The notes below the pieces were generated by a model. That model saw only the letters and a list, made by a program, of their open reading frames with translations, did no database searches and was not told where the DNA came from. A DNA stretch of 60,899 nt from a virus: the IMG/VR virus record IMGVR_UViG_3300012207_000001; one strand, written 5' to 3'. The position numbers and the translations under genes were made by a program. How positions within the stretch are numbered: the stretch's first letter is position 1; each line of letters starts with the position of its first letter. Shown piece by piece: positions 2,445 through 51,574 of the stretch.

Positions 2445-3956
2445 ATGACCGTACAACAACTCCCAACGATAGATCTCATTTCCCTGATTGAGCAACGCGC
2501 CCCCGTCCGTTTCAAGCGTGTAGCCAGCACTCAGGGAGGGGAATACGCGGGTAACTGCCCCTGGTGTGGAGGTACCGACCGTTTTCGCGTGTGGCCACAT
2601 GCAGAACGTCCCCGGTACTGGTGTCGTTCCTGCCAGGCAACAGGGGATGCAATCGAATTCCTCAAAACATTTAGCTTGATGACGTTTCGAGATGCCTGTG
2701 ACGAGCTAGGCATCGATCCGTCAGACATGGGTTATACGGGAACGGCCAGCCCCTTACGTCTTCCGCCTGAGCCTCCTGCACAGTGGATGGAGACGGCTGC
2801 ACTTTTCATCAGTGCAGCTCAACGATACCTTTTCTCTTCAGGAGGTAAACGCTATCTTGAGTACTTGCAGAGCAGAGGGATAACCGTCGAAACAATTAAA
2901 AAGAAAAACATCGGTTGTGTTCCTCTCACAAAAGAAGGACGATGGACAGAATCGCCGTTTGATCGTTGGGGGTTGTCAGAAGAGAACCTGACGCCTGAGC
3001 AGCTCGCTAAGGGTTGTGTTCGTATTCCTGACGGTCTTTTCTTTCCGCATTATGTGAATGGCCAGTGTTGGAAGCTATCAATGTATCGTCCGTTTGAGAC
3101 GGAGAAGAAGTACCGACGGGGTTTTATCACTGGCAGTAGAGAATGCTTGCTCAATGAGGATTTATTCACAACAGGTAAACCTGTTGTGATGACAGAGGCG
3201 TTTTTAGATGCTATTAGCATCGAGCAGGAGGCTGGAGACATCGTTGTAGCTACAAGTACCGATGGTAGCACAAGCAGCCGCTCATTGCGTTGTCAGGCAC
3301 GTCTAGGCTATGCGCCATACGTCTTGTTGGCATTTGACAACGACCCGGCAGGGATGGATGCGTCAAAGTTTTGGGGAACACATCTAAAAAATGCATTGTT
3401 CTATCCGGTCCCTACTGGCAGCAAGGATGCAAACGAATTCTTGCAGTCAGCGAATGGAGCGGAACACGTACGCAAATGGATAGCAGAAAAAATAGAGCAG
3501 GTGCAGGAGATAGAAGTTCTTCCTATTCCTTCTCTGCCAGCCACCCAAGAAGACATTAGCGAGCCAGATCCCGTTTGTGCTCTTTGTTTCGGAATAATCT
3601 ATGCATATACCGACGAGGGCACACCATGCTGTGAGCGTTGCTATACGGGCCAACAAGCCATAGAGAAAGCAATAGTCACGCACATAGCCACAACAATACA
3701 CAAGCCCTCTGTTGACCCTCTCACAGCGTTTGCAACGACGGTAGATGCTATAGCTAATGTGTTCAGCCTTTGCACCATAACAAAGCATCCTCCTGAGTAC
3801 ACACTGGCTCAGCATGCCGCGTTTTTGAGTGACCAGGCAGAGCGAACGATGTTGGCAAAAGAAATAGCTATGCGCCGTTTAGTTGCGGACCGAAGATTTA
3901 AACGGTTGCATCCTGAGCAGATAGAGCAGGAACAAGTAGACGAGGAAGAGGTATAA
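2445..3956 (+). CDS. DNA primase with a zinc-binding domain and a TOPRIM domain.
   Basis: CPWCGGTDRFRVW...YWCRSCQATGDAIEFL is the zinc finger. VMTEAFLDAISIE and LLAFDNDPAG are TOPRIM E and DxD motifs. AAGGAG lies 6 nt upstream of the ATG at 2445. Confidence 0.8.
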   Translation: MTVQQLPTIDLISLIEQRAPVRFKRVASTQGGEYAGNCPWCGGTDRFRVWPHAERPRYWCRSCQATGDAIEFLKTFSLMTFRDACDELGIDPSDMGYTGTASPLRLPPEPPAQWMETAALFISAAQRYLFSSGGKRYLEYLQSRGITVETIKKKNIGCVPLTKEGRWTESPFDRWGLSEENLTPEQLAKGCVRIPDGLFFPHYVNGQCWKLSMYRPFETEKKYRRGFITGSRECLLNEDLFTTGKPVVMTEAFLDAISIEQEAGDIVVATSTDGSTSSRSLRCQARLGYAPYVLLAFDNDPAGMDASKFWGTHLKNALFYPVPTGSKDANEFLQSANGAEHVRKWIAEKIEQVQEIEVLPIPSLPATQEDISEPDPVCALCFGIIYAYTDEGTPCCERCYTGQQAIEKAIVTHIATTIHKPSVDPLTAFATTVDAIANVFSLCTITKHPPEYTLAQHAAFLSDQAERTMLAKEIAMRRLVADRRFKRLHPEQIEQEQVDEEEV

Positions 3957-3959
3957 CCG

Positions 3960-4733
3960 ATGGCTGCAACTATGTATTTTTCTGGCATCGAAAAAAGAAC
4001 AACGGCAGATGTATTAATTGCTGAAAACGCGTCAGGCATGATGTCTATTTGCCAGTATACTGACCAGCTGGTACATGATTGCAAGTCTATTTCTCTGGTC
4101 ATGGACTCAGGAGCGTTTGCAAAAGAGTTAACTAGGCAGGACATAGAGCGATATGCACAGGTTATTCTCAAACATCATGCAAGATTTGCATGGTTTGCCA
4201 ATTGTGATAGCATCGGGGATCAGGTAAAAAGCAATGAAAATTACCGCTTCTTACTCTCACTCCTGCCAGAGCACTTGCACGTGCAAGTGCTCTGGATTTA
4301 TCAGCAAGGGACAGATAAGCGTTTCTTGTACGATGGCTTAAATCAGCATACACGCGTAGGGATAGGCGGTTTGGTGCCGCTATTCTCAAAAAATAAGGGG
4401 TATGCAATGGCGATACTGCAAGAAATAGCCTTAGCAGTGAGGCAACATCATGTATCCCCTCACTACTTTGGACTAGCAAGCGTAGACATTCTGAGAACAT
4501 TACATCAGTACCATGATGATTTTTCAGTAGATTCTACCACATGGCTTGTGGGAGGGAAGTATGGAGCGGCAATTAATGCTACGGGTCAACAGGTATCCGC
4601 GAATGCAGGAGGATTTTGTTATAGTACACATGAGATTTTGTCTCAAAACGTGCGTACCATATCCAAATGGATGCAAGCCCCTGCCAGGCAAAGAGAAGTA
4701 AATCAGCAACTCCCATTATTTGACGTGGCTTGA
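3960..4733 (+). CDS. tRNA-guanine transglycosylase (TGT)-fold protein. It is a candidate DpdA-like DNA 7-deazaguanine transglycosylase.
   Basis: The motif order is collinear with TGT: VMDSGAF (TDSGGFQ), WIYQQG (GIVQGG), RVGIGGLVP (YAIGGLxVG), PHYFGLAS (RYLMGVG), FSVDSTTW (FDCV). Confidence 0.5.
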   Translation: MAATMYFSGIEKRTTADVLIAENASGMMSICQYTDQLVHDCKSISLVMDSGAFAKELTRQDIERYAQVILKHHARFAWFANCDSIGDQVKSNENYRFLLSLLPEHLHVQVLWIYQQGTDKRFLYDGLNQHTRVGIGGLVPLFSKNKGYAMAILQEIALAVRQHHVSPHYFGLASVDILRTLHQYHDDFSVDSTTWLVGGKYGAAINATGQQVSANAGGFCYSTHEILSQNVRTISKWMQAPARQREVNQQLPLFDVA

Positions 4734-31942: not shown

Positions 31943-32181
31943 GCATCTTCCCCTTTATACATAAGCATGAATTGATACTGACGGCGTGCAAATTCAAGGC
32001 AATAACAAAAATGCGTTAAACGACAGCCATTAAGAAACCAAACTCGTCTATTCATTTTAGTCCCGATAATTTCTTTTACCTGCCGAAACTTTATAATACG
32101 CATCCATATCCCGCCTAAATACAGACCAAATAATGCACGTGTATCCATCTTCAATGCATGATCTATCAATCCGTATTTCAT
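31939..32181 (-). CDS. Hypothetical protein.
   Basis: ORF overlapping both neighbours by 4 nt, which suggests translational coupling. Confidence 0.35.
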   Translation of the reverse strand: MKYGLIDHALKMDTRALFGLYLGGIWMRIIKFRQVKEIIGTKMNRRVWFLNGCRLTHFCYCLEFARRQYQFMLMYKGEDA

Positions 32182-34427
32182 CCTAATGCCTCCCTCATGT
32201 ATGTCTGATACTCCGCTCTACGTTGCCTTTTGCTAATGGGTATCGGAGCTTGTTTTTCGGGGCTTGCAACCTTGCGAAAGAAGACAGTACAGCAACATCC
32301 GCAAACCTCAGAGGCAGGGGCAGACGGATCGCCTGGGTGTGCCATTTTATAACCGCCCACCTCAAAATCGTCATCAAGCCCTACCTCCTGACCGTCTGCC
32401 TCTTCATGATCTTCTCTTGCAGTCAACCGTCCAGGAATAGCCAGCCACACCTTGTTTAAGGTAAGCGCTGATTGCTTTGCTGCCTGGATTGCACCGTAGG
32501 AGGTTGCAGCCGTGACTTCCGTCTGTGCAATGGTAGCTGCCCTTCCTGTAATTTGGGATAGGTATAAACTATCGATCCGCGTTGCGAGTGTCGGTACATC
32601 CTCCCCCGCTTGTACTCCTGCTGTGAGTGCCGATCGCACTGCATTGAGCGTTGTACTATCAATCTGGCTAATCTGCGAGCCTGCCAACGATTCCAGATAC
32701 TCCAGTACAGCATCTCCAAATGTACCAACCAGAGATGAAATAGCCTTTTTATCATGCCCTACTTCCCCTTCTTGCAACTGTGCAGAAATATGCGTGCTTG
32801 TATCCATGACTACATCCTGATAGAGGGACGATAATAGCTTCTGTCCCTCATCCTTTGACCGCTTGATAGCTGTCTCTACTCTCAAGATAGCAGTGGAAGG
32901 AATAGCCGCTTGCTTGACCGCACTTACCACGCTCTTTTGTTGTGATGCGAAATACTTTTTGAACTCTACTTCTGCCTTGACTTGCCACTTGCCACGCAAG
33001 CCCGCCATAGCATCGTAATGCGCTTGCTTTTGCTCAAGTGTGGTTAAGTCTAGAGCCTTACTACTCTTCTTTGGAGGCTTTGACGCTGGCAGTGCAGGAG
33101 GTTTTGCAGCTTCTACGGTCTGATTGTTCGGTAGTGTTCCCCCTCGTTCAGGGACTTGAAAAGGAGGAACGATTGGTCCCGATAAAGACTTCTGTGCAAA
33201 TTCTTGCAGACTATCAGCTGGTACCAGGATATTGCCTATCCGGTACACATTCCCCTGTGGATCTTCAGGAAGCCCCTGAAGTACTAAGGCTTGATTGAGC
33301 GTACACGCACCCCATTGGTATGCAGTCACGGCGCGTTGTCCCTCTGCAATCTTCTGCATCTGTATAGCGCGTGCTATGACCTCTACGCTATCCTTGTCAT
33401 AGTACAGATAAGCACCTTTGAGGTCTGGATACATAGGCAGAAGCCAGATATTCCAAAGTGCATAGAGATCGTCAAGGTCAGGAAATATCGCCTCTGTGTA
33501 TGACGCGATTTTCGCTTCATCCACATTTGCATAAGTTGAAGAACTGGTATCACCTATCAGCTGAGGAGGAATATTATAAATATTTGCCAGCAACACGGCG
33601 TTATACTTGATGCTTTCTAACCAATCAAGCTCAGCAGGGGGTAAGCCCATCGACTGCCAGGTAAGACCAGCATCAAGAACTGGAGGCAAGCCTGCATTCC
33701 TAGCGCCTTGCAGTTTTTCTTTAAGGTTCTGCTCTAACCTATTGCGTTCGTTCTTGCCTAATGGGACTGGAGTAGTCCATGCCCCTGACGGTCTGGCAGA
33801 GTTTTGCACTAGCGCTAAATCCCACTTACGCGTATGCATCTGCATATCGATCAAAATGGCTGCTATCTCAATCGGGGAAATACCGTACACTTCATTGTTT
33901 GGATTCCAGTACTTTGTATGACCAATATTTTGAGGTAGGATGGGTTGCTCTAAGTACTCATACTTATATCCCTCTATGCCGCGTGGCTTGCTGGCTAGGA
34001 TCTGGACGAGGTCTGGTCGCAGTGTCCATAGTTCATCGGGCGGGCCACTACCCTTCCTTAAAGAGTACTGATAGTTATTCCCTGTCAGGAGCTTATACGC
34101 TAGACAAGCCTCCCTGTATGCCACCCCTGTTTGCTCTGCATTCGGATTATTGAGCTTGTCTAATAGGGGATGCGTCTCTATTTCCCTCTGCTTTGTCTTG
34201 TCTGTATAGAGTTTGGGAGGAATAGCGCCTCCATTACGAGAAATATATGAGATGCATTTATAGACAGTGTTATCCTCATACCCTTCTTTCGCAAAGGCTT
34301 TGTAATTCCTAGGCATCTGCAAGAGTTGAGGAGCGGTACTATAGGTGATGAGCCCTTGGTAAGCAGGATTGACTTTCTGTTCTCTGGCAGGATGAAGGAA
34401 CGCCTGTACACGTTGCTTGAAGCTCAT
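32178..34427 (-). CDS. Portal protein fused to a Mu gpF/SPP1 gp7-like minor head domain.
   Basis: The N-terminal roughly 450 aa are portal-like. The C-terminus reads REDHEEADGQEVGLDDDFEVGG...HPGDPSAPASEVCGCCC (MuF signature R..H...dGq...PGD...nCrC). The start at 34427 overlaps the upstream stop (ATGA). Confidence 0.75.
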   Translation of the reverse strand: MSFKQRVQAFLHPAREQKVNPAYQGLITYSTAPQLLQMPRNYKAFAKEGYEDNTVYKCISYISRNGGAIPPKLYTDKTKQREIETHPLLDKLNNPNAEQTGVAYREACLAYKLLTGNNYQYSLRKGSGPPDELWTLRPDLVQILASKPRGIEGYKYEYLEQPILPQNIGHTKYWNPNNEVYGISPIEIAAILIDMQMHTRKWDLALVQNSARPSGAWTTPVPLGKNERNRLEQNLKEKLQGARNAGLPPVLDAGLTWQSMGLPPAELDWLESIKYNAVLLANIYNIPPQLIGDTSSSTYANVDEAKIASYTEAIFPDLDDLYALWNIWLLPMYPDLKGAYLYYDKDSVEVIARAIQMQKIAEGQRAVTAYQWGACTLNQALVLQGLPEDPQGNVYRIGNILVPADSLQEFAQKSLSGPIVPPFQVPERGGTLPNNQTVEAAKPPALPASKPPKKSSKALDLTTLEQKQAHYDAMAGLRGKWQVKAEVEFKKYFASQQKSVVSAVKQAAIPSTAILRVETAIKRSKDEGQKLLSSLYQDVVMDTSTHISAQLQEGEVGHDKKAISSLVGTFGDAVLEYLESLAGSQISQIDSTTLNAVRSALTAGVQAGEDVPTLATRIDSLYLSQITGRAATIAQTEVTAATSYGAIQAAKQSALTLNKVWLAIPGRLTAREDHEEADGQEVGLDDDFEVGGYKMAHPGDPSAPASEVCGCCCTVFFRKVASPEKQAPIPISKRQRRAEYQTYMREALG

Positions 34428-34714
34428 AGCAGTTGTTCCTCCCTCTGCTCGTAAGCGAGCATAGAGAACAACATGTCTTTGACCTCCTGCACTGTCAGAC
34501 AAGAGCCAATAGCCGAATGTAAGTGAGACATGATATCAATTTTTTTGCTTGCAACCTTGTGCTGAAAAAAGCATTGACCGGTAAAAAGATCTATCCCCTT
34601 TGCCCCCGTTCGATCCGCTATCAATAAGTAAGGATTTAATCCGTCCTGTGTAATAATGAATGTTCGGTACTCTGCCCCTTTTGGCGTGCATTCCCGTATT
34701 GTGGAGGCGTTCAT
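34424..34714 (-). CDS. Hypothetical protein.
   Basis: ORF between terminase and portal with coupled stops and starts. Confidence 0.45.
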   Translation of the reverse strand: MNASTIRECTPKGAEYRTFIITQDGLNPYLLIADRTGAKGIDLFTGQCFFQHKVASKKIDIMSHLHSAIGSCLTVQEVKDMLFSMLAYEQREEQLL

Positions 34715-34938: not shown

Positions 34939-35155
34939 AGCGTCCCCTAACCTGCTTACGACGTTTCGCAATAGAACGCTCTGCACACTTACGGATCTTG
35001 CGAGGAGCGATAGGATAAGCGCGTCTGCAATGATTAAGCCACTGTAAACGCATGTATGTTACCGGACTGACTGAGAATAAAGGCGCATCCAAATCAGCCA
35101 TAGAGCGGATAGATTGAAATGATTGCAACAGATCCGCAGCTAAAATATTACTCAT
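34931..35155 (-). CDS. Hypothetical basic protein.
   Basis: The start overlaps the TerL stop. The C-terminus is RKIRKCAERSIAKRRKQVRGRYE. Confidence 0.4.
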   Translation of the reverse strand: MSNILAADLLQSFQSIRSMADLDAPLFSVSPVTYMRLQWLNHCRRAYPIAPRKIRKCAERSIAKRRKQVRGRYE

Positions 35156-36779
35156 TCCATCCTCCATACCGCTCTGCCCATTCAAACGGGTCAATTTGTC
35201 TTGTCTTTGCAGGGGTAGCCACAACAATCTCTAACATAGGCTCCGTATCCTCATCTAATGAAGCAGGAACAGGCCCGTCAATTGCGTCTGGTATATCATC
35301 TTCTCCTAAGCGATCATCACTTAATGGCCCCTGTGAGCGTACTACAATGCTACTCAGACTAATCATGTCTACCTGATCGTCATGGCTTGTCTTTGGAAAC
35401 TTGTACAGTTCTTTCCGCAGTTCCACTAACCAGGATGCGCCATGCAGGAAGTACAGTTTTCCGTTTTCCTGCCAAATGGCCGCGTTAGCAGCTCGTGCCA
35501 CCTTATCCTTTTGTGGCTTAAACGGTCTACATGGTATTCCCCTGGCCAGCAAGTCTTGAAATAATGCATGCTGGTACGCAACGGTTTCAACGGCAGTAAA
35601 ATCTGCACAATCCTCGTTAAATGCGTCTTCAACCTCGTCCTGTTGATCCTTGTAGGACCAACGATCCCTACGCACTGCCAATAAAAGCATGTCCTTAATC
35701 GGTGTTTTCGCCCACGTACCAATAACCATGTAGTCGGCTGTTTGCGATTCTGAGATGGCAGGGTCTATCGTCAAGTACAGTTCACAGTCATCTTTCAGTA
35801 CCGCTCTATCACCTCTGGGAGTGTGCAAGATGTAGCTATCATGTGTAATAGTAAATAAGCGTTCATGTTTTTGCTTAAAGATACCTCCGCCTGCAGGGAC
35901 AGGTTTTTGGCCATACAAAGCAGAATAGCCATAAACACCATGACGACGTTTTGCTTTGTCGATGACTTCTTGCGGGAACCGTTCAATCCACAACAATTCG
36001 CCTTCTTGTGTACGAGGATCTGACCAACCTCCTCCTTGCCACTGTGTTACACAGGGTGTTTCGGTTTCATATTCGGCTGGCAGATTGAGATGTACCCATT
36101 CCCCGTCGTTTGTTTCTAAGATATGACCGCTCACATCCTGCTCATGTATACGCTGTCCCACAACCACCATAGCGCCCGTCTGTTGATCATTCAAGCGTGT
36201 TGACCACGTATTATCAAACCAATCAAGGGCAGCCTCCCGTTTTACGGCAGACTCTTTTTCATCGATGTTATGTGGATCGTCTAGTAGAAGGATGTCCCCG
36301 CCTTCTCCGGTTGCTGCACTACCAACGCTCACAGCCATTCTGTAGCCTAACTGATCGGTCTCAAACTTCATTTTTGCATTCTGATCGTTGGCAAGGGTGA
36401 AAACGTTTCCATAACGGGCCTGAAACCAGTTCGAGCGGATAAGTCTGCGCGCCTTAATATTGTCGCGTGTGGCAAGGTTGAGGGCATAGGAGCCACATAA
36501 TAACCGTGTGGAAGGCTTATTGAGGAGTAGCCACACCGACCATAGTACGTCAATGTAGGTTGACTTGCCATGGCGAGGAGGCATGTTCACGAGAAGTTTA
36601 TGGATATGACCATGGGTAACTGCCTCTAGATGCTCTGCAATGGCGTCAAGGTGCCAGCCACCTACATATGGGCGGCCTGGTTCTATGACATGCCATGCCT
36701 CTTTTGCAAATAGAGCAAAGGATTTTCGCGCGCGTTCAGCCTGGACAATGCTGGAAACGGGTAATGCTATGGCAACCAT
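35148..36779 (-). CDS. terL: Terminase large subunit.
   Basis: MPPRHGKST (Walker A-like), ILLLDDPH (Walker B) and a C-terminal nuclease-like TIDPAISESQTADYMVIG. Confidence 0.9.
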   Translation of the reverse strand: MVAIALPVSSIVQAERARKSFALFAKEAWHVIEPGRPYVGGWHLDAIAEHLEAVTHGHIHKLLVNMPPRHGKSTYIDVLWSVWLLLNKPSTRLLCGSYALNLATRDNIKARRLIRSNWFQARYGNVFTLANDQNAKMKFETDQLGYRMAVSVGSAATGEGGDILLLDDPHNIDEKESAVKREAALDWFDNTWSTRLNDQQTGAMVVVGQRIHEQDVSGHILETNDGEWVHLNLPAEYETETPCVTQWQGGGWSDPRTQEGELLWIERFPQEVIDKAKRRHGVYGYSALYGQKPVPAGGGIFKQKHERLFTITHDSYILHTPRGDRAVLKDDCELYLTIDPAISESQTADYMVIGTWAKTPIKDMLLLAVRRDRWSYKDQQDEVEDAFNEDCADFTAVETVAYQHALFQDLLARGIPCRPFKPQKDKVARAANAAIWQENGKLYFLHGASWLVELRKELYKFPKTSHDDQVDMISLSSIVVRSQGPLSDDRLGEDDIPDAIDGPVPASLDEDTEPMLEIVVATPAKTRQIDPFEWAERYGGWNE

Positions 36780-37548: not shown

Positions 37549-38694
37549 ATGACAAAGCGAAGGGATAAAGGAGACGGTAGTATCTATCAGCGTACATCAG
37601 ATGGGCTATGGGTAGGCTCAGCGCGTCTGGACAAAGGCAAGCGTAAGTATGTCTACGGACTGACTAAACAGGAGGCTACGAAAAAGCTGAAGGCTGTACA
37701 GAGGGAAATAGAGCAAGGAACGTTGGTCACTGAAAAAGCTCAGAAGGTTGAAGCGTTCTTGCATTACTGGCTTGATATTCACAAGGCAGAGATAGCAGAG
37801 TCAACCTACAGAAATTATTGCCATCTGCTTAAGCAGGTATATCCCCACATCGGGACTGTAATCCTAACAAAGCTCACACCTGACCAGATCCAGAGAATGT
37901 ACGCAATGGTTGTCAAAAATCACGCTATTTCCTATATCCGTCAACTACACAGAGTGCTCACATCCGCATTCAATGATGCGATAAAGTGGAACCGTTTATC
38001 AAAAAACCCGTGTGGGCTCGTCACTCTGCCAAAGAAACAATACGATGAAGAGGCCAGCCAGCATGCTTTGAATGCAGAACAATGCCAATTGTTACTAGAT
38101 ACTGCTAAGGATACACCATTCGAGACGTTTATCGTTATGGCACTAGGAACAGCTCTACGCCGTGGGGAAATACTTGCATTGCGTTGGTCTGACATAGAAC
38201 TAGACGAGAAAAGGGTCTCGATTACAAAAACGTTATCGTATATTGAGGATGACCAGGGACATAACCACTATGTCGAGGGTTATCCTAAGTCTCATACCTC
38301 CAGACGTTCTATAGTCTTACCTGGCTTCGTTATAGACGCACTCAGGACACACAAAAGGAGACAACTAGAGCAGAGATTAGCTGCTAAGAAGTGGGAGGAT
38401 AAAAACCTTGTCTTTACCAACTTGGCAGGGGGCTATTTCTCTATTCCTGTGCTTCAATATCGATTCAAGAAGTTGCTTGTGCAGGCAGGATTGCCAGCCA
38501 TACACATACACGATTTGCGGCATAGTTGCGCTACACTTCTACTCAAAAAAGGCGTACCCATGAAAGTCGTGCAGGAAATACTAGGGCATTCCTCGATTGT
38601 GGTAACCATGAACGTCTATGGACATGTCACCCCTGATATGCAAGAGGATGCCATGTCAAAAATGGATGGACTATTCCATCATAAGGAAGGATAA
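37549..38694 (+). CDS. int: Tyrosine recombinase, phage integrase.
   Basis: LRRGEILALRWSDI (Arg I), HDLRHSCATLLL (HxxR), LGHSSIVVTMNVYGHV (catalytic Tyr) and an N-terminal SAM-like domain. Confidence 0.95.
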   Translation: MTKRRDKGDGSIYQRTSDGLWVGSARLDKGKRKYVYGLTKQEATKKLKAVQREIEQGTLVTEKAQKVEAFLHYWLDIHKAEIAESTYRNYCHLLKQVYPHIGTVILTKLTPDQIQRMYAMVVKNHAISYIRQLHRVLTSAFNDAIKWNRLSKNPCGLVTLPKKQYDEEASQHALNAEQCQLLLDTAKDTPFETFIVMALGTALRRGEILALRWSDIELDEKRVSITKTLSYIEDDQGHNHYVEGYPKSHTSRRSIVLPGFVIDALRTHKRRQLEQRLAAKKWEDKNLVFTNLAGGYFSIPVLQYRFKKLLVQAGLPAIHIHDLRHSCATLLLKKGVPMKVVQEILGHSSIVVTMNVYGHVTPDMQEDAMSKMDGLFHHKEG

Positions 38695-40480: not shown

Positions 40481-41143
40481 ATGAAGAAACCTCGATTGTT
40501 AGATCTGTACTGCGGAGCAGAGGGTTGTTCCGTAGGGTATGCTAGAGCAGGTTTTGACGTGGTAGGGGTTGACCTTCTACCACAACCGAACTATCCATTC
40601 AAGTTCTGCCAGGCAGATGCATTAACATTTCCTCTTGATGGTTTTGACTTCCTGCATGCCAGCCCTGAATGCGACGGGTATAGTGTGGCTACGTTGTTTC
40701 ACGGCCACGCTACGCGTGACGAGCATCCTCTACACATATCGACAATCAGACAACGGTTTATTCAATCAGGAAAACCCTATATCATAGAAAATGTGGTGTC
40801 TGCAATGAGGCACATGCACCAGCCTATTACTATGTGTGGAATCACATTTGGATTAGATGCTCCCCGCCATCGATTATTTGAAAGCAACGTCAAGCTCATA
40901 GCGCCCAAACACCAAAGGCACATTAAGAAAGTAGCTAAACCAGGCGCTATCCCCCTGGATACACAATACTGGTGTATTGGCGGTCATTTTGGACAAAAGG
41001 AACGGGCCGCGTTAGAGGGTCTGGGCATCGATTGGATGACAACGCAGAAAGAGATAGGGAACGCTATTCCTCCTGCCTACACGGAATGGATCGGCAGGCA
41101 ACTACTCAACAGTACCGCCCTCTGCCAACGTCTACTATTTTAG
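40481..41143 (+). CDS. Short C5-cytosine-methyltransferase-like SAM enzyme.
   Basis: LDLYCGAEGCSVGYARAGF (motif I-like), HASPECDGYS (PC motif with Cys) and YIIENV (motif VI). At 220 aa there is no obvious target recognition domain. Confidence 0.45.
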   Translation: MKKPRLLDLYCGAEGCSVGYARAGFDVVGVDLLPQPNYPFKFCQADALTFPLDGFDFLHASPECDGYSVATLFHGHATRDEHPLHISTIRQRFIQSGKPYIIENVVSAMRHMHQPITMCGITFGLDAPRHRLFESNVKLIAPKHQRHIKKVAKPGAIPLDTQYWCIGGHFGQKERAALEGLGIDWMTTQKEIGNAIPPAYTEWIGRQLLNSTALCQRLLF

Positions 41144-41343: not shown

Positions 41344-41985
41344 CTAAACAGGGGTAGACTCTTTCTTTTTGACCTTTTTCGCCCATCGCATCATGCCCAC
41401 AAAATTGACGATAACTAGGCAGGTAACGCCAGCTAGCATAAACATGAGAATATCGTACACATGTGTATGAATAGCAGCTATCCGTTGCTGCCAAAGTCCA
41501 TTAATCTGGCTAACCAGAGGATAGTATTTCACTTCATGATCAAGAACGATCTGAGCCTGAATATCGAGGTTGACGGTATTATCATCAGGTTTTGCCAGGA
41601 TGTTATGAAATGCCGTATCCATAGCGACGTAATCCGGCTGTGCCTGTACGACCAGGAGAAGCACGTCAGATGGTACGTGAGCAGGAAGCCCTAATGCAGT
41701 ATCCCCTACTTGTAGTCCCCTTTCAGCACGCTCCCACAACGGCAGAGACACTTGTAGCTCACTTACGGACTGCGTAAACGTTGTAGGGGTTGAAGGATTG
41801 ACGATCAATAACACATCTTTGGTCATACGCTCCACACGCGCGCGTTGTAACCCTATCTGGTTCGTGGTATTCGATGTGAGACCGTTTTGAGCCTCCTGCA
41901 ACATAAAAAAACTGGCCAGCAACAACAGTAACCCAATCGTCGCAACCACTGCAAGCCAGGCATAAATCTTATATTTCGTATCCAT
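41344..41985 (-). CDS. Membrane protein with an N-terminal TM helix, an extracytoplasmic domain and C-terminal TM helices. The extracytoplasmic domain may be PilJ/NarX-like.
   Basis: TM helices IYAWLAVVATIGLLLLLASFFML and ILMFMLAGVTCLVIVNFVGMM. NQIGLQRARVERMTKDVLLI loosely resembles the PilJ P-box. It is a lone minus-strand gene among plus-strand genes. Confidence 0.45.
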   Translation of the reverse strand: MDTKYKIYAWLAVVATIGLLLLLASFFMLQEAQNGLTSNTTNQIGLQRARVERMTKDVLLIVNPSTPTTFTQSVSELQVSLPLWERAERGLQVGDTALGLPAHVPSDVLLLVVQAQPDYVAMDTAFHNILAKPDDNTVNLDIQAQIVLDHEVKYYPLVSQINGLWQQRIAAIHTHVYDILMFMLAGVTCLVIVNFVGMMRWAKKVKKKESTPV

Positions 41986-41991
41986 AGGACC

Positions 41992-42067
41992 AGTATAACC
42001 AGTTTTTAAAACTTGATTGAAACTGATTGATAAATCCCTTGACTTTCTATTAGATATCTGTTAGTAT
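41992..42067. promoter_or_regulatory. Bidirectional promoter cassette. Leftward TATACT sits 6 nt from the ATG at 41985. Rightward is TTGACT, 17-nt spacer, TAGTAT.
   Basis: agtataaccagtttttaaaacttGATTGAaactGATTGAtaaatcccTTGACT. Confidence 0.55.
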
Positions 42068-43708: not shown

Positions 43709-43915
43709 CTATCCTAACAAATGATTAGCGTATCCTATAAGCAAGCTCAACAAAGCAGCAAAAAGCGTAGAGGCCACTGCGATCAAAAACTTGATACGGA
43801 GCTTATCCAGGTTCTTATCCGCATCTAACAGGCTGGTCTTTACTCCTGCTACGTCCTGCTTGATGTACGTCATGTCCGTCTCCAGACGGATCACTCTCTC
43901 ATGTATTGGTTCCAT
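43709..43915 (-). CDS. XhlA-like small membrane protein with an N-terminal coiled coil and a C-terminal TM helix.
   Basis: MEPIHERVIRLETDMTYIKQDVAGVKTSLLDADKNLDKLRIKFLIAVASTLFAALLSLLIGY. The start at 43915 sits 6 nt from a TATACT box. The longer track ORF runs through the promoter. Confidence 0.5.
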   Translation of the reverse strand: MEPIHERVIRLETDMTYIKQDVAGVKTSLLDADKNLDKLRIKFLIAVASTLFAALLSLLIGYANHLLG

Positions 43916-43921
43916 ATCTCT

Positions 43922-43997
43922 AGTATAACCAGTTTTTAAAACTTCGCTGAAACTGATTGATAAAACACTTGACAATTGCGTACAAATTGCGTACAAT
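43922..43997. promoter_or_regulatory. Second bidirectional promoter cassette. Leftward TATACT sits 6 nt from the ATG at 43915. Rightward is TTGACA, 17-nt spacer, TACAAT.
   Basis: agtataaccagtttttaaaacttcgctgaaactGATTGAtaaaacacTTGACAattgcgtacaaattgcgTACAAT. Confidence 0.6.
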
Positions 43998-46366: not shown

Positions 46367-48097
46367 TTAGAATTCTACCCATTCAATCATGAATGAGACC
46401 GAACTGGCGGTAACTGGGACTTTCACATACACGCTTGCATTCCTGGTCGTACTCTTGGGTAGGATAAGTTGGGAACTATTCGCCAACACCTGAAACGGTG
46501 CATTCGAGACAAGTGCAAACGAGCCTGACTGGACCGCGCCCGTTCCTCCCATCCCCGTTGTCTCTACGACCGTTGCGGGACTGCCTGTAAGAGCACTAAG
46601 CAACGGTGAACCGCCTCCTACTATCTGATTAGTGGCATTAGCGGTCAAGAGGTTTGCTGTGAGTCCAGCATCGGTATTAGCGCCTGTGCTATTGTAGTAA
46701 ATACGCCCATCGGCGCATCCGGTCGTTGCAAATGCGACAATGCTATAGATAATGACATTGACTGCTAGGCTGTTAGCGCGTGCTTGAAATCCTGCAAACG
46801 TATTCACACCCGACGTGAGAAGGAGCGTAGTCGTTGCACGATAGGCCATGCCCGACATAATCAACGACATGATGACGTTCGATGTTCGCAAATTTCCAAA
46901 CGTATCGATAGTGGCAGTATTAACTGCACTGGAATCAACCAGTTTTACCGCACCAATAACATTGTTGCCGAACGGTAAAGAGGTACCAATCGCAACCGTT
47001 GCACCTGCAGCGCCTGGAGCTGCACTTGAAGACATGCGTACATTGACCGTACCAGAGGCAACAGCCGTGGATCGTACGCGAATACTATCAAAGCCAGGGT
47101 TATTGATCTGCCATGTCTGATTAGTATTGGAGAGTGTTGTATAGCCATTCTCAATGACAGGAGTATTGTCTCGTGCAGATTGCACACTATACCACGTAGT
47201 ACCCGAATCATCTGACCCTTCAAACACACCTGTAGCGGTACCATAGGTGCCATTAATCGATACAAGAACGTTTCCATAACCATCAAGACCGGTTGCAACA
47301 ACACTATTCGTTTGTGTTGCATTGGTAAACGTTCCTGAGAAATCAGATTGCTCACCATTAATCATCGGAAGACCAGCCGATAGGCTAGCAGTAACCGCAA
47401 TAGAGCCACTATCAACAACGGTATGCAAGTTCGTACCTGTTGCTTGTGTAACACTTACAGAACCGCTATCGACAATGATATGCCCTATAACATTCGTTCC
47501 ACTAGGCAAGGATGGAAGGCTGGTTATAGACACACTGCCAGCGCTATCCACTACCACGTGCCCTATCACGGCTGTACTGGCATCGTTAATAACGTGACCT
47601 ATCACGTTAGAACCTGAAGGCAGAGCAGGTAACGAGGTTACAACCGTAGTCGATCCTGAGTCAGTCAGGACATGTCCAATGACATTTGTTCCACTGGGAA
47701 GCGTTGGCAGGCTGGTTATAGTAACCGCTCCTGCACTGTCTACTACCACGTGTCCTATCACGTTCGTACCAGCTGGTAGAGGAGCGGATTGCTTTACGCT
47801 GGCAATGCCTGACGCGTCAATTGCTAACTCATTAGCACCGTTGTAAATACCCGTTCTCAGATTGAACGCAGAACTAGATTCAACCCATAATCGTTGGCAA
47901 TTCGTACCATCGGTTGCACCAATCATATGAGCAGAACCAGACTGAGGGCCACCCACTGGCATCGAAGTAGGATCACGTGCCAATATCTGTGATTGATCGC
48001 TAGCTATAACCACTGGCAAACTACTAGATGCCGTTGTTTGACCTGTTGGCAAATTAAGCGAAACGGATGCAGTCGAGGGAGGGACTGACAAAGGCAT
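46367..48097 (-). CDS. Fibre or receptor-binding-like protein with five to six P(A/S)GTNVIGH(V/I) repeats.
   Basis: LPAGTNVIGHVVVDSAGAVTITSLPTLPSGTNVIGHVLTDSGSTTVVTSLPALPSGSNVIGHVINDASTAVIGHVVVDSAGSVSITSLPSLPSGTNVIGHIIVDSGS. The ATG at 48097 has an AAGGAG RBS. Confidence 0.55.
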   Translation of the reverse strand: MPLSVPPSTASVSLNLPTGQTTASSSLPVVIASDQSQILARDPTSMPVGGPQSGSAHMIGATDGTNCQRLWVESSSAFNLRTGIYNGANELAIDASGIASVKQSAPLPAGTNVIGHVVVDSAGAVTITSLPTLPSGTNVIGHVLTDSGSTTVVTSLPALPSGSNVIGHVINDASTAVIGHVVVDSAGSVSITSLPSLPSGTNVIGHIIVDSGSVSVTQATGTNLHTVVDSGSIAVTASLSAGLPMINGEQSDFSGTFTNATQTNSVVATGLDGYGNVLVSINGTYGTATGVFEGSDDSGTTWYSVQSARDNTPVIENGYTTLSNTNQTWQINNPGFDSIRVRSTAVASGTVNVRMSSSAAPGAAGATVAIGTSLPFGNNVIGAVKLVDSSAVNTATIDTFGNLRTSNVIMSLIMSGMAYRATTTLLLTSGVNTFAGFQARANSLAVNVIIYSIVAFATTGCADGRIYYNSTGANTDAGLTANLLTANATNQIVGGGSPLLSALTGSPATVVETTGMGGTGAVQSGSFALVSNAPFQVLANSSQLILPKSTTRNASVYVKVPVTASSVSFMIEWVEF

Positions 48098-48113
48098 GGC
48101 TTTTTGACTCCTT

Positions 48114-48434
48114 TTATGAAAGTTCTGTAACCCTAGCATTACCGTTTGCACTTACCCATATGCCCGTGATAAGCCCCGTATAGACGGGAGGGACTGGCAT
48201 CTCCCAAAAGCTTGCAGTAGGTATTTGCACGACGTAACTAGACGAGCTGGCTACAGCAGAGAACGATAAAAAAAGAGTCTGCGTGCTGTCGTTGTACACA
48301 TAGATTCCCTTGCGCGCTGTGTTGGCTGCCGCTATAGTAACGCTGGTTGCGGAGCTTGCAACGTTCGTTAATGTTGCGGTCGTTGCCACTAATGAGACAG
48401 GCGAAACCGCAGGCGGCTGTACTGGTACAGTCAT
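48114..48434 (-). CDS. Small beta-sandwich-like protein, first gene of the detached module.
   Basis: 106-aa T/S/A-rich ORF. Confidence 0.45.
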   Translation of the reverse strand: MTVPVQPPAVSPVSLVATTATLTNVASSATSVTIAAANTARKGIYVYNDSTQTLFLSFSAVASSSSYVVQIPTASFWEMPVPPVYTGLITGIWVSANGNARVTELS

Positions 48435-48549
48435 ATGAAAATCATGCCTCCATCATAGTAATTCCATTGTGCTGCATTCAGTATAAGCAAACAACCTCAT
48501 AGCTAGTTATGAATATCCCATAAAGATCTGAAATTGATGAAAAAGAGGA

Positions 48550-48578
48550 TTGACAACACATGAATAAATGGGTACTCT
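48550..48578 (+). promoter_or_regulatory. Promoter, a degenerate copy of the cassette.
   Basis: gaaattgatgaaaaagaggaTTGACAacacatgaataaatgggTACTCT. Confidence 0.4.
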
Positions 48579-48614
48579 ACTATAGATGAATAATTCTGAC
48601 AAAAGGAGGAAACA

Positions 48615-48818
48615 ATGTTAGTGGCTACAGACAAAGCTTTGAGCATAAGAGAAGTAGCAAACAGGCTAGGAGTAAGCGTATCAACCGTACGCAGAATGTT
48701 GGACACGGGGGAATTGCGCGCATTCAAAGTATTAGGACAATGGCGCATACGTGAAAGCGTTGTTGAGCAAATCATGCAATCATCCAATGACAATAAAGAC
48801 CAGGAAACACAAAACTAA
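48615..48818 (+). CDS. Excisionase-family HTH (HTH_17-like) DNA-binding protein.
   Basis: LSIREVANRLGVSVSTVRRMLDTGELRAFKVLGQWRI with an AAGGAGG RBS. Confidence 0.65.
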   Translation: MLVATDKALSIREVANRLGVSVSTVRRMLDTGELRAFKVLGQWRIRESVVEQIMQSSNDNKDQETQN

Positions 48819-48937: not shown

Positions 48938-49066
48938 ATGACTCTCGTACTAATCATTATGGCATTTACATTGGTCATCGCTATTTCTTGCAACTGGCCA
49001 GATGAAGAAGAATGGCCACACCCCAAAGAAGGGGAAGATAACCCCTACGAAAATTGGAAAGAATAG
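48938..49066 (+). CDS. Small membrane protein, 42 aa.
   Basis: MTLVLIIMAFTLVIAISCNWPDEEEW.... Confidence 0.3.
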   Translation: MTLVLIIMAFTLVIAISCNWPDEEEWPHPKEGEDNPYENWKE

Positions 49067-49100: not shown

Positions 49101-49349
49101 ATGATCGTATCCATCCCCACAAGTGCAGGCATGATTAACTTATGCCTGACTGCCAGACTCTTGAAGATCATAGCCTGCATAGTAGGGATAGGTATGATCC
49201 TGGCAGGCTACACACTCATGCAGCTCGTCTCTTTTGTTATGACTGCCAGCCCAGAGCAGTTCGTGAGAGTTATTCTTGTAGCGTGCTTCGTGGCAATCGT
49301 ATTTGTAGTGAAGAACATTGCAGTCTGCAAGGCAGGAGGCAGACTATGA
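49101..49349 (+). CDS. Small integral membrane protein.
   Basis: Two to three hydrophobic helices. The stop overlaps the next ATG (ATGA). Confidence 0.45.
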   Translation: MIVSIPTSAGMINLCLTARLLKIIACIVGIGMILAGYTLMQLVSFVMTASPEQFVRVILVACFVAIVFVVKNIAVCKAGGRL

Positions 49350-49837
49350 AACAACGGATGTTCATTATCGGCTGGTCTGTTATTGGTATCTTAATAACGG
49401 GCCTATGCGTGATTGTTATCACCAGCCTTATCCCCTATTACAATATCGTGGGAAAGATGGCATTAGTAGTCGTCGCAATGGCATTGCTCTGCCTGATCGT
49501 TCTCATGTTTTCATTTACTAAATCGAGAGTGAGTATCTGGCATAATCGAGAACGGTTAATCATAGCAGGGGATGTAGTTGCATACATAAACCAGGCAGGA
49601 TTGATTGAGAATCTAACGGCGCAAAACTATGCAGCCCAAATAGCGCCCAACGTGACTGTGCGGCAAATAGCGCCTCCTGCTCAGCAAGTAGAACAAGATA
49701 CCTCGTCAGACGAGGATACGGTAAGAGATCTTATTGTACGAGGAACGGCACTCAAATCCATAGCAGAGAGTACAGGCTGGACGTATTACCGTGTCCAAAA
49801 ACTTTATGCACAGATGAAAGAATCAAACGAGATTTAA
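49346..49837 (+). CDS. Membrane-anchored protein with a C-terminal HTH-like segment.
   Basis: Two N-terminal TM helices (MFIIGWSVIGILITGLCVIVITSL, MALVVVAMALLCLIVLMFSF), then a C-terminal TVRDLIVRGTALKSIAESTGWTYYRVQKLYAQM. Confidence 0.5.
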   Translation: MKQRMFIIGWSVIGILITGLCVIVITSLIPYYNIVGKMALVVVAMALLCLIVLMFSFTKSRVSIWHNRERLIIAGDVVAYINQAGLIENLTAQNYAAQIAPNVTVRQIAPPAQQVEQDTSSDEDTVRDLIVRGTALKSIAESTGWTYYRVQKLYAQMKESNEI

Positions 49838-49840
49838 CCC

Positions 49841-49949
49841 GATTGAACATTGATTGACGATTGATTGAGCCAATTAAGCCAGATCGCACGATTGATTGCA
49901 AATTAGATTGACGATTGATCAAGCACGATTGACCGATTTTTTGTCAATC
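49841..49949. repeat. Array of ten GATTGA motifs, nine direct and one inverted, in about 110 bp.
   Basis: GATTGA starts at 49841, 49852, 49859, 49863, 49890, 49906, 49913 and 49927. There is a GATTGC variant at 49894 and an inverted GTCAATC at 49943. The common unit is ACGATTGA. Confidence 0.8.
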
Positions 49950-49999
49950 TGAAGATAGAGAGTCCCCCACAGCGGGGGAGGGGATAGGAGAATACTTGT

Positions 50000-50941
50000 A
50001 TGGCAGCCATAACAAACCAACCTAGTGGACAACACTGGAAAGAGAGGGCTCTTGAACATGCGGAGGCTATCACGGACTCATGGGAAGTAACCAAAGCCTA
50101 TGCAGGTAGGCTTGCGGAATGGATTTTATTTCTCTGCATGATCTTCTGCATAGTTGAAATCTTGCCAGGCGTGACGCTCTACCCCTGGTTATCGAATACC
50201 ATTCTAGGTATACAGGCCGTTACGCTTGACGTGGGAGGCTTTGCACTCTCCAGTATGGCCGACCATGCCAGATTGTCAGGTGATATTACATCTGCAAAGA
50301 AGGCCGATACTACTGGCAAATTCTTGATAGGAATAGTGATTCTTACCCTGACTTTAATCACGATTGGGCTCCTCTATGCACCTGCAAAACAGTACACAGA
50401 TGGAGCGGAAAAGTTACTCATTTTAGTACGTGTTGTGATGACCGTTGTGTATGGACATGTCATCCATTCGCTACGCAAAAATGTTACTCCATCGGTACAG
50501 CCGACGCAAGTAGTTACGCTAGAAAATCGTCTACAAGAAATGGCGGTACAGATGACAGAAAACCAGAACAGTCTGGTACAACAATTGAGAGAGGAGATAG
50601 AGACGCAAAGGCAGGCTATAAACCAGCTGATAACTAATGCAACATTCAAAACTGATGACATTACACATGACAGTTTTGTTGACATAGAAATGGAAGATGA
50701 TTTGAATGTTGAGACATCAGAGGAGGGAACAAAAACAGAAGAATTACCGCTCTCGAAGATTACCGTAAAGTTGACACCAGACATTACAAAAGTGTCAACG
50801 AAAAAGGAACCGACGGCGAAACAAAAGGCAGCAAAAATGTTACAACGAAATGCAAACTTGACTGCCTCTGACATTGCAAAAAAGTTGAATATTACCAGAC
50901 AATACGCTAGCGCTATCTTAGCAGAAATGAAAGGAAATTAA
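50000..50941 (+). CDS. Polytopic membrane protein with a coiled coil and a C-terminal HTH.
   Basis: Four TM helices in residues about 40-160, a coiled coil (ENRLQEMAVQMTENQNSLVQQLREEIETQRQAINQL), an acidic linker and a C-terminal LTASDIAKKLNITRQYASAILAEM. Confidence 0.6.
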   Translation: MAAITNQPSGQHWKERALEHAEAITDSWEVTKAYAGRLAEWILFLCMIFCIVEILPGVTLYPWLSNTILGIQAVTLDVGGFALSSMADHARLSGDITSAKKADTTGKFLIGIVILTLTLITIGLLYAPAKQYTDGAEKLLILVRVVMTVVYGHVIHSLRKNVTPSVQPTQVVTLENRLQEMAVQMTENQNSLVQQLREEIETQRQAINQLITNATFKTDDITHDSFVDIEMEDDLNVETSEEGTKTEELPLSKITVKLTPDITKVSTKKEPTAKQKAAKMLQRNANLTASDIAKKLNITRQYASAILAEMKGN

Positions 50942-50942
50942 C

Positions 50943-51173
50943 ATGAAGTTTTGGTTTAAGAACCTCAAAGGACCAGACAACGATGGCGACGGCTACGAAA
51001 TAGTCACCCCTCCGATGGAAGATCAAGAAGAGATCAATAATATTCTTATTGATCCATCGCGTAGAGCAGAGCTACGAAAAAAGATGGGCTTACCCGATGA
51101 CGGAAAAATCTGGTGTGATGTTTGTCAGGTAGCGCACGTACCACCAGAACATACAGCAAAGAAAGGACACTAA
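50943..51173 (+). CDS. Hypothetical small protein.
   Basis: ORF with an RBS. It contains CDVCQVAH. Confidence 0.45.
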   Translation: MKFWFKNLKGPDNDGDGYEIVTPPMEDQEEINNILIDPSRRAELRKKMGLPDDGKIWCDVCQVAHVPPEHTAKKGH

Positions 51174-51268: not shown

Positions 51269-51574
51269 ATGGCCACACTGTACCCAACACATCAAGAGAG
51301 GCGCGCAATTGAACGCTCCGCCAACGCTGGCGATGAGTCTGCAAAGAACTATCTAAAACTATTAGACATCTGCACTGAGATACTAGAGAACTCAAACGGT
51401 ATTTCGCTGGCCAGGGGAATGCTAGGAGAGCATAATGATGTCTACGGACACGCCATAGACGACGCGCTATCTGAACTCATGCCTGTTGCAGTGGAAATCG
51501 CTGCAGGAGGATGGAAAAGTCTTCAGTTCTACGCTCCTCCTGTTACGACTGATAAGGCAAAAGAGGAAGAGTAG
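51269..51574 (+). CDS. Hypothetical protein.
   Basis: ORF with an AAAGGAG RBS. Confidence 0.5.
   Translation: MATLYPTHQERRAIERSANAGDESAKNYLKLLDICTEILENSNGISLARGMLGEHNDVYGHAIDDALSELMPVAVEIAAGGWKSLQFYAPPVTTDKAKEEE

Follow-up and report, generated by a model that had tools for sequence, protein, structure and literature searches.

The systems closest to the locus described here come from Streptomyces plasmids. Their protein TraB combines a membrane anchor with an FtsK-like motor and, at its C-terminus, a domain of the winged helix-turn-helix (wHTH) type by which it recognises repeated 8-bp clt motifs, and translocates double-stranded (ds) plasmid DNA (PMC4447253, PMC4170104). On pWTY27, clt comprises 16 bp in the 3′ end of traA and the 159 bp next to it and holds inverted repeats besides four direct ones of 7 bp, and TraA has two transmembrane (TM) segments; in the clt of pJV1, inverted repeats accompany nine direct repeats of 9 bp (PMC3583192). 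SpdB2, a pore-forming, dsDNA-binding protein with four TM helices, contacts TraB and is required for mycelial spreading, and putative homologues of it are found on actinophages (PMC4447253); SpdA2 binds a site within its own gene (PMC4170104). Here we describe a locus of a soil phage, the virus record IMGVR_UViG_3300012207_000001 from IMG/VR (60,899 nucleotides; 'the window' below means this whole stretch), in which a dense array of the hexamer GATTGA separates the genes of two predicted membrane proteins, one of 163 and one of 313 amino acids (aa), each with a predicted C-terminal helix-turn-helix (HTH). The arrangement is one variant of a lineage-wide phage and prophage module of Ktedonobacteria, and, judging from how motif and HTH type co-vary among relatives, the array is very probably the cognate site of the HTH of the upstream, 163-aa protein. 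The searched literature (open-access PMC and bioRxiv) yielded no published description of such a combination of GATTGA array and membrane-anchored HTH proteins.

The array, our proposed cis-acting recognition locus (49838..49950), contains, from 4 nt past the stop codon of the 163-aa gene onwards, nine exact copies of GATTGA in 109 bp, eight of them direct (starting at 49841, 49852, 49859, 49863, 49890, 49906, 49913 and 49927) and one inverted (49944-49949). The initial annotation had described ten copies; the array is real, and a tenth copy is reached only if a degenerate unit, e.g. GATTGC at 49894, is admitted. Half of the direct copies (4/8) read ACGATTGA and five of the eight read CGATTGA, so that the unit consensus is approximately NGATTGAY, and spacing is irregular (11, 7, 4, 27, 16, 7, 14 and 17 nt). 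With 61 other copies of the hexamer in 60.8 kb, ~0.11 would be expected per 109 bp, and when the whole window was simulated 100 times with a first-order Markov model, no hexamer reached more than five copies in any 110 bp, compared with nine observed. On both counts, the array is far above chance. It closes with an inverted pair, GATTGAC-N9-GTCAATC (49927..49949), that is kept in three relatives (L008, L010 and L011; see below). Past the array, just ahead of the ribosome-binding site of the 313-aa gene (AGGAG, 49986-49990), lies a potential plus-strand hairpin, CCCCC-N5-GGGGG (49964..49978), whose stem is kept and whose loop varies in the same three relatives; these show no compensatory changes, and the 48-52 kb region gave no Rfam match. 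A sequence scan predicted neither a promoter nor a terminator in the 162-nt spacer between the two genes.

How do related loci compare? We compared the locus with its relatives, numbered L001 to L025 and L147 in what follows; the family of the 313-aa protein is hereafter called the 4-TM family. In every informative relative, copies of a short motif are densely clustered where the gene 5′ of the 4-TM gene ends, either in its 3′ end or directly behind it. The motif itself differs from group to group: ATTCACC/GGTGAAT in L001 and L003 (13 and 10 core hexamers, respectively), CGGAC(G/A) in L005, TTTTTCA followed by inverted TGAAAAA in L007, GGAAAT in L021 (nine copies), GGTGAAA in L022 (four tandem copies) and a GGGGAAA-like unit in L017, whose HTH type is that of L022. 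In four of these loci (L001, L003, L005 and L021) the array lies within the coding region of the upstream protein itself—the putative reader of the array—and in L001, L003 and L021 it occupies the part that codes for the linker. Since such intragenic copies occur in two to three reading frames and in both orientations, the constraint acts on the DNA rather than on a peptide repeat. The genes of these relatives are separated by gaps of 12-14 nt.

The GATTGA array, in turn, goes together with an HTH tail of the form TG[WLM]TYYxxQK, and the two are found jointly in seven loci, namely the window, L008, L009, L010, L011, L012 and L147. Within the group formed by the window, L008, L010 and L011, the upstream proteins are 76-80% identical where known, and the array follows immediately on the stop codon in L010 (five direct and one inverted exact copies) and in L011 (six plus one exact copies and a GATTGG variant), with eight plus one copies 5′ of the 4-TM gene in L008. 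The more distant L009, whose protein is 42% identical, has GATTGATTGATTGA overlapping the stop codon and one inverted copy, and in L012 GATTGA/GATTGG units come after a protein that ends in TGLTYYQVQKI. The most telling case is L147. Here the upstream protein, P0162, is a 503-aa member of an ATPase family, yet its tail, ETGWTYYKAQKI, aligns with STGWTYYRVQKL, the recognition region of the 163-aa protein's HTH (E = 4e-7 for the alignment of the C-terminal 55 aa with the C-terminus of P0162), and its stop codon falls inside GATTGATTGATTGATTGG, followed by seven inverted YCAATC units (five of them exact TCAATC) and then the 4-TM gene; in all, about ten GATTGA/TCAATC copies come after the ATPase reading frame. 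The GATTGA motif therefore follows the HTH type, with or without an attached ATPase. Moreover, identity between the window and L008 is 91.5% across the array-bearing spacer and drops to 58.9% where the 4-TM gene begins next to it, and loci that share GATTGA differ in the HTHs of their 4-TM proteins, from which it follows that the array tracks the upstream and not the downstream protein. The initial annotation had considered the array a likely site of both flanking membrane-tethered HTH proteins; the co-variation supports this strongly, and for the upstream protein only.

A second array is present in relatives, within the linker- and coiled-coil-coding stretch of the 4-TM gene. It consists of TGGACA/TGTCCA in L005 (28 copies, often as the palindrome TGTCCAcTGGACA), L147 (20) and L022 (16), of CCGCAC(T) in L007 (8), GCGCAC in L012 (6), GCGCAA in L001 (8), CTGTACA in L003 (~10), GGCTAC in L017 (9), GTCTCA in L020 (12) and TCTGCA in L023 (11). 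The 4-TM proteins of L005, L147 and L022 have an HTH of the type LSxRAIAxxxxCSPTT in common, whereas their upstream arrays are made of CGGAC, GATTGA and GGTGAAA, respectively; conversely, L007 and L012 share a GISETYAR HTH and near-identical downstream motifs, (C/G)CGCAC. The two arrays thus assort independently, each with its own HTH. In the 4-TM gene of the window, no hexamer exceeds four copies, and three occurrences of GTTGACA are within chance by a rough estimate.

What is the nature of the putative reader? The 163-aa protein (49346..49837, plus strand; AGGAGG 8 nt before its ATG) had been annotated as a two-TM protein with an HTH-like C-terminal segment, and hydrophobicity and structure prediction agree with this. 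Its hydrophobic helices cover residues 7-25 and 39-57, and in the AlphaFold 2 (AF2) model residues 2-27 and 30-66 form helices, 100-121 a disordered linker and 123-159 a C-terminal three-helix bundle with a predicted local distance difference test (pLDDT) score of ~80; there is also a short beta element. When searched with Foldseek, the bundle retrieved HTH DNA-binding domains only, at weak E-values, among them the FtsK gamma domain, and no wing was seen. Positive charges flank the membrane helices (MKQR... and ...TKSRVSIWHNRER here, HSLRKN in the 313-aa protein), and we infer from the positive-inside rule that the HTHs of both proteins face the cytoplasm. Neither Pfam nor the AF2 model gave any indication of an ATPase domain. 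The protein family appears small: only five homologues were found, P0108, P0109 and P0111 being among them, a related-locus scan of viral contigs returned no locus for it, and an exact-pattern scan of the same kind of contigs with GATTGAYGATTGATT hit at least 120 unrelated contigs, all of them chance matches.

The downstream protein (313 aa; 50000..50941, plus strand) likewise matches its earlier description as four TM helices, a coiled coil, an acidic linker and a C-terminal HTH. Its AF2 model (pLDDT 76 overall) predicts four long helices over residues 12-165, a coiled-coil-like helix of 54 residues (168-221), an acidic disordered stretch (222-268) and, with pLDDT >90, a three-helix HTH (273-312); hydrophobicity peaks at 42-60, 108-126 and 139-157, with a weaker segment at 65-85. 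The HTH superposes on those of Lrp/AsnC proteins with a root-mean-square deviation of 1.0-1.4 Å over ~40 residues (Foldseek), and the protein matches Pfam MarR_2 at 3e-5, which is under the curated cut-off. A fold search with the four-helix membrane domain returned nothing convincing, the best match being ORAI at E = 0.64. The 4-TM family is sizeable: we collected 105 close metagenome homologues and, in an exhaustive profile search whose output carries no organism names, 343 clusters at 50% identity; the related-locus scan of viral contigs gave three loci. Across the family, the N-terminal 160 residues are highly conserved and the linker and C-terminal HTH vary widely.

In five relatives (L001, L003, L005, L007 and L147), the gene directly 5′ of the 4-TM gene codes for an ATPase of the FtsK/HerA superfamily (500-556 aa). 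The Walker A motif is canonical in the L001 and L005 proteins, the Pfam match to DUF87 (HerA central domain) lies above cut-off with TrwB and FtsK_SpoIIIE weaker, and a profile of the family, which counts >160 members, retrieved FtsK, EssC/EccC and HerA-like chains from the PDB. Each of the relatives' ATPases ends in an HTH-like tail, and the gene is always preceded by that of a multi-pass membrane protein of 170-236 aa. Hydrophobic segments at the N-terminus stand out clearly in the L007 type; those of L001 and L005 are borderline, and L147 has none. Among 72,556 plasmids, tblastn with the ATPase found only FtsK/SpoIIIE-domain genes of Bacillus, Nostoc, Mammaliicoccus and Lactobacillus at ~25% identity, and among phages FtsK/SpoIIIE-domain proteins from a small number of Bacillus and Staphylococcus phages. 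L147 also encodes, immediately 5′ of the cassette, a 157-aa sigma70-like protein (2534-3007) with regions 1.2 and 2. In the window, the 163-aa gene occupies the position of the ATPase gene, and no homologue of the ATPases is encoded anywhere else. We considered whether the 163-aa protein is a plain deletion derivative of such an ATPase and rejected this, as only the C-terminal HTH is homologous: a visual likeness between residues 68-99 and the conserved VPYVDNxxLYxLLGPSTF of the ATPases scored below shuffled controls, and the N-terminal TM part matched neither the relatives' 170-236-aa membrane proteins nor the ATPase N-termini.

What could such a cassette be for? That the upstream position is normally held by a gene for an FtsK/HerA-type ATPase with an HTH points to a DNA-handling module like TraB/clt, and we infer binding, membrane tethering and a transfer function along the following lines. 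The HTH of the 163-aa protein would bind many GATTGA copies at once, and the protein, being membrane-anchored, would hold a stretch of phage dsDNA against the cytoplasmic membrane, beside the 313-aa protein with its four TM helices, coiled coil and HTH and the operon's small membrane proteins. Where the cassette is complete, as seen in relatives, the reader would be the FtsK/HerA-type motor itself and the array its loading or recognition site. The cassette would thereby amount to a membrane-bound module that handles DNA, probably by translocating or spreading it, and whose HTH/array address pairs can be exchanged; the window would carry a motor-less form of it that tethers or marks DNA; moving this DNA would take another motor. 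Taken as a whole, the view that the array is the address locus of the membrane-anchored 163-aa protein within a DNA-handling module akin to TraB/clt/SpdB2 seems to us about evenly balanced between right and wrong, and that the job of the cassette is DNA translocation or spreading, which leans on the analogy, is a tentative assignment in which we place somewhat less trust. With the motor absent, the cassette as found in the window cannot act as a translocase of the TraB type; it may serve as a tether, rely on some other motor, or be a remnant.

The missing motor is also the starting point for another account, in which the locus is a centromere-like tether and nothing more, anchoring phage DNA for segregation into hyphal compartments or spores, or for the organisation of replication at the membrane in the manner of phi29 p16.7, with no transport involved. 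The window does contain two membrane-anchored HTH proteins and no motor, and forms lacking the ATPase are found in four or more independent loci and hence are no one-off defect. Short multi-copy repeats resemble centromeres of the parC or omega type, and the 313-aa protein matches the membrane-anchored phage protein p16.7 of phi29 in its combination of TM, coiled-coil and DNA-binding parts. Yet most relatives place an FtsK/HerA-type ATPase on the HTH that reads the array, which tethering alone would not require, scans of the cassette and of ~40 other open reading frames revealed no partner resembling ParA, ParM or TubZ, and for a phage with an integrase the need for plasmid-style partition is not obvious. 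We regard tethering as the sole function as unlikely, while noting that, of the three readings offered by the initial annotation, the membrane-anchoring or centromere-like cis site is the one that fits best.

The other two, a decoy for a promoter regulator and a membrane-gated transcription switch, bring us to the occurrence of GATTGA at promoters. Six near-identical sigma70-type cassettes of the form AAACTGAKTGATAAA-N5-TTGACA-N17-TAnAnT are reused in the window (7107, 10441, 11078, 40410, 42020 and 43950), and two copies have a longer upstream block of 77 nt in common (41967-42043 and 43897-43973). The proposed link between these early promoters and the array core holds for four of the six, with an exact GATTGA at about -50 to -45, and fails for the remaining two, which read GAGTGA. 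A further GATTGA, at 48548 and as part of an array-type GATTGAC unit, overlaps the -35 of a putative sigma70-type promoter of the cassette (48547..48579, plus strand; GGATTGACA-N17-TACTCT), tentative in that it falls below the promoter-scan score; this unit suggests possible autoregulation of the cassette. Outside the array, the hexamer is over-represented (61 copies vs ~39 expected) and, between 37 and 51.6 kb, skewed 18:2 (plus:minus), which ranks it sixth of 812 hexamers by strand skew. The five higher-ranked ones are all purine-rich coding-strand words, and part of the skew may be due to a purine-loaded coding strand; elsewhere the counts (7:3 in 1-11.6 kb, 11:10 across the structural region on the minus strand and 5:5 in 51.6-60.8 kb) are not significantly skewed.

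On this basis, the 163-aa protein might be a membrane-sequestered transcription factor and the array its autoregulatory operator or a titration sink, and there are centromere binders, KorB and omega, that double as repressors. The two GAGTGA promoters, however, do not fit, and neither do several features of the arrays: those of relatives are intragenic and sit in operons with the above 12-14 nt gaps, and so are not promoter-proximal, the window's spacer has no predicted promoter-like site, and in L147, which has the same array type, no GATTGA-plus-TTGAC promoter was found within the 9.4 kb of this short locus. Fusion to an ATPase would be unexpected for a repressor. A purely regulatory role thus appears distinctly unlikely, and the decoy and switch readings are weakly supported, although the promoter copies of GATTGA leave room for a regulatory side role.

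A repeat array in or beside the gene of its own binding protein also brings replication origins to mind, in which case the arrays would be iteron-like sites of an initiator, as in lambda, where ori lies in gene O. The arrays in the linker-coding part of the reader gene in L001, L003 and L021 recall exactly this arrangement, and FtsK/HerA-type ATPases can work on DNA as translocases or helicases. Against this, the units are short (6-8 bp), irregularly spaced (4-27 nt) and without an adjoining AT-rich block for unwinding, known initiators have neither membrane anchors nor an additional HTH/array pair that is independent of the first, and the primase and helicase genes lie elsewhere. A better candidate for a replication origin, or alternatively an operator, is the region 55950-56290, with a cluster of ~12 GTGTACA/TGTACAC(GG) copies in both orientations and AT-rich tandem repeats (TTATTTCATTATAG twice, TATT four times), located 5′ of 56887-57489 and of a primase-like gene (57493-58992). 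The TGTACA core of this cluster is at the same time the motif of the intragenic 4-TM array of L003. That the GATTGA array itself serves as an origin is, in our view, highly improbable.

Membrane location, putative sequence-specific DNA binding, an optional FtsK-like pump and rapidly diversifying specificity might, in combination, also suit a complex that grips array DNA at infection, either to pull the genome in, as in the two-step entry of phi29 and T5, or to block or expel superinfecting relatives. The arrays, however, stay matched to their own HTHs, which amounts to self-recognition, whereas if the device served exclusion, loss of the array would benefit an incoming phage. The module moreover lies ~12 kb from the terminase end and is not obviously the first DNA to enter, and searches against PHROGs gave no above-noise match to known exclusion families. 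We hold a role in DNA entry or exclusion to be very unlikely.

Returning to the address-locus model, with the array as recognition site of a membrane-anchored reader in a TraB/clt/SpdB2-like module, several observations weigh against it. Co-variation, seen over seven GATTGA loci and at least five other motif types, establishes a linkage between HTH type and motif, not contact between them, and the window and L008 are without a clear second array. The motor on which the analogy turns is found nowhere in the window, and where it exists, its N-terminal TM segments are not a constant feature, being clear in the L007 type alone and absent from L147. Its tblastn matches are FtsK-like proteins of Bacillus, Nostoc and Staphylococcus rather than TraB, and the 4-TM family had no tblastn match in the plasmid and phage collections, which should include Streptomyces plasmids. 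The presence of GATTGA at promoters is consistent with a regulator. Finally, with its integrase and complete set of structural genes the element is a temperate tailed phage, and for conjugation-like transfer by such a phage we found no precedent in the literature searched. The biology of the host, on the other hand, is favourable. All named members of the 4-TM family, be it among the 105 homologues, the 12 reference-genome loci (including the chromosome of Ktedonosporobacter rubrisoli, L018) or the 10 distant clusters that were looked up, belong to the Ktedonobacteria, spore-forming Chloroflexota with branched mycelial growth, and a mycelial host makes the selective logic of a TraB-like system plausible for a temperate phage.

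Not all 4-TM genes sit in cassettes of this kind. Five Ktedonobacteria genomes (L015, L016, L018, L019 and L025) contain chromosomal copies with an HTH of the ARCNRAAALAWLK type, without an upstream ATPase or array and with only a small intragenic (A/C)GTAC(C/T) cluster, and on a contig of a metagenome-assembled genome (L024, 4998-6134) three successive matches to the N-terminal domain of the family indicate tandem or fragmented copies.

As for the remainder of the cassette, its first gene (48615..48818, plus strand) encodes a 67-aa HTH_17 protein of the excisionase/MerR-like kind (Pfam 3.5e-14; PHROG 66), probably the regulator of the cassette; an HTH_17 gene is found at the equivalent position in L001, L002 and L007, with a tblastn match to L001 at 5e-6. 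Two small membrane proteins had been noted upstream of the 163-aa gene, and hydrophobicity profiles concur: a 42-aa protein (48938..49066, plus strand) has one hydrophobic helix (Kyte-Doolittle peak 2.36, residues 1-19) and no family match in Pfam or PHROGs, and an 82-aa protein (49101..49349, plus strand), 61% conserved in L010, has two. The stop codon of the 82-aa gene overlaps the start of the 163-aa gene (ATGA at 49346). Downstream, a 76-aa protein (50943..51173, plus strand; 75% identical in L008) is separated by a gap of 1 nt from the 313-aa gene, to which it is translationally coupled, and L001 has a 75-aa gene at the matching position. The final plus-strand gene of the cassette (51269..51574) codes for a 101-aa protein that is 93% identical in L008 and matches no family in Pfam or PHROGs.

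The genome as a whole is closed at ~60.8 kb: positions 1-123 equal 60777-60899, a direct repeat identical over 123 nt, so the window is either a closed complete genome or one with short terminal repeats. It encodes a tyrosine integrase (37549-38694) along with, both on the minus strand, a large terminase (35148-36779) and a portal protein (32178-34502), and integrase and structural genes together identify a temperate tailed phage; two primase-like proteins and a helicase are also present. None of 50,697 deposited phage records matched it at the nucleotide level. Next to one primase gene, a PAPS-reductase-like (1637-2434) and a queuine tRNA-ribosyltransferase-like gene (3960-4733) suggest a module for 7-deazaguanine DNA modification, and two DNA methyltransferases are encoded at 412-1296 and 40481-41143. 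A 594-aa tail-fibre-like gene (46367-48151, minus strand) contains a 101-nt direct repeat (47477-47577 / 47669-47769, 75% identity) that codes for TNVIGHV...DSG units.

If the TraB-like interpretation were taken to its conclusion, temperate phages of the mycelial Ktedonobacteria would pass their genomes from one hyphal compartment or cell to another as naked dsDNA, with no virion involved, by means of an apparatus analogous to TraB/clt/Spd with two exchangeable HTH/array pairs per cassette, each array embedded in the coding sequence of its reader, and the window would represent a motor-less, tethering derivative. We consider this scenario, built on analogy, a rather long shot. If true, however, it would be the first sign beyond Actinomycetota that the logic of an FtsK-like motor plus a repeat array serves dsDNA transfer in mycelial bacteria, and the presence of such a module in tailed phages would suggest virion-independent genome spread through hyphae. 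Whatever the function, the loci offer a natural set of matched HTH/short-motif pairs, with at least seven upstream and at least eight downstream motifs in the sampled loci, that assort independently and are overprinted on coding sequence for disordered or coiled-coil regions. These pairs should be useful for studying how DNA-recognition specificity co-evolves with cis sites and how far coding sequences tolerate embedded arrays. They also provide a first functional handle on the 4-TM and ATPase families, which carry no functional annotation beyond the generic 'HerA central domain' label.

How, then, does the locus relate to known systems? Plasmid centromeres such as ParR/parC, the omega heptads of pSM19035 and TubR/tubC consist of short direct or inverted repeats that are bound cooperatively by a small DNA-binding protein and whose specificity diversifies. 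Their binders, however, are soluble and work with ParA, ParM or TubZ, whereas the binder proposed here is membrane-anchored and no such partner was found among the open reading frames scanned. In phi29, p16.7 is anchored in the membrane by its N-terminus, continues in a coiled coil, binds DNA through its C-terminal domain and attaches phage DNA to the membrane. The predicted build of the 313-aa protein is similar, and the resemblance is architectural only; p16.7 has a single TM helix, binds DNA non-specifically and has no site array, and no homology was detected through PHROGs. A further comparison is with FtsK and SpoIIIE, membrane-anchored FtsK-type motors whose C-terminal wHTH (gamma in FtsK) reads an 8-bp motif, the FtsK orienting polar sequences (KOPS) or SpoIIIE recognition sequences (SRS). 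FtsK was both a weak fold match of the 163-aa HTH, through its gamma domain, and a top profile match of the relatives' ATPase. These motifs, in contrast, are dispersed, polar and chromosomal instead of forming a local array, and the proteins serve the segregation of the host chromosome. Lambda O/ori has in common with the L001, L003, L005 and L021 arrays that the site lies in the coding region of its binder, although lambda iterons measure 19 bp and mark an origin. The same placement is known from SpdA2 and its sps site on pIJ101 (PMC4170104), which is a single palindrome, unlike the multi-copy array of the window, which moreover follows the stop codon.

The closest parallel is with TraB/clt as found on pSVH1, pJV1 and pWTY27. 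In both cases, the reader is membrane-anchored (through helices 7-25 and 39-57 in the 163-aa protein) with a predicted C-terminal HTH or wHTH, the cis site comprises several direct or inverted repeats of 6-9 bp in or just after the 3′ end of the reader gene—overlapping its stop codon in L009 and L147—the motifs differ among elements, the hosts are mycelial and, in relatives, the reader is an FtsK/HerA-superfamily ATPase. There are differences, too: the window's reader is without the ATPase domain, and the motor is present only in relatives and resembles TraB only at the superfamily level, beyond which there is no homology, tblastn with the ATPase having matched no Streptomyces record. The host belongs to the Chloroflexota and not the Actinomycetota, the element is a tailed phage, and in relatives a second HTH/array pair resides on the neighbouring membrane protein. 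That neighbour, for its part, compares with SpdB2: four predicted TM helices (plus a coiled coil), a DNA-binding capacity that the modelled HTH makes likely, and a gene in one operon with the translocase. Unlike SpdB2, which binds dsDNA non-specifically, the 4-TM family has a variable C-terminal HTH with matching arrays in relatives, and no sequence match connects it to the plasmid collection. With these likenesses and differences side by side, the nearest analogue of the Ktedonobacteria cassette is the Streptomyces TraB/clt/SpdB2 system for dsDNA conjugation and hyphal spreading, of which it is an analogue and not a family member.

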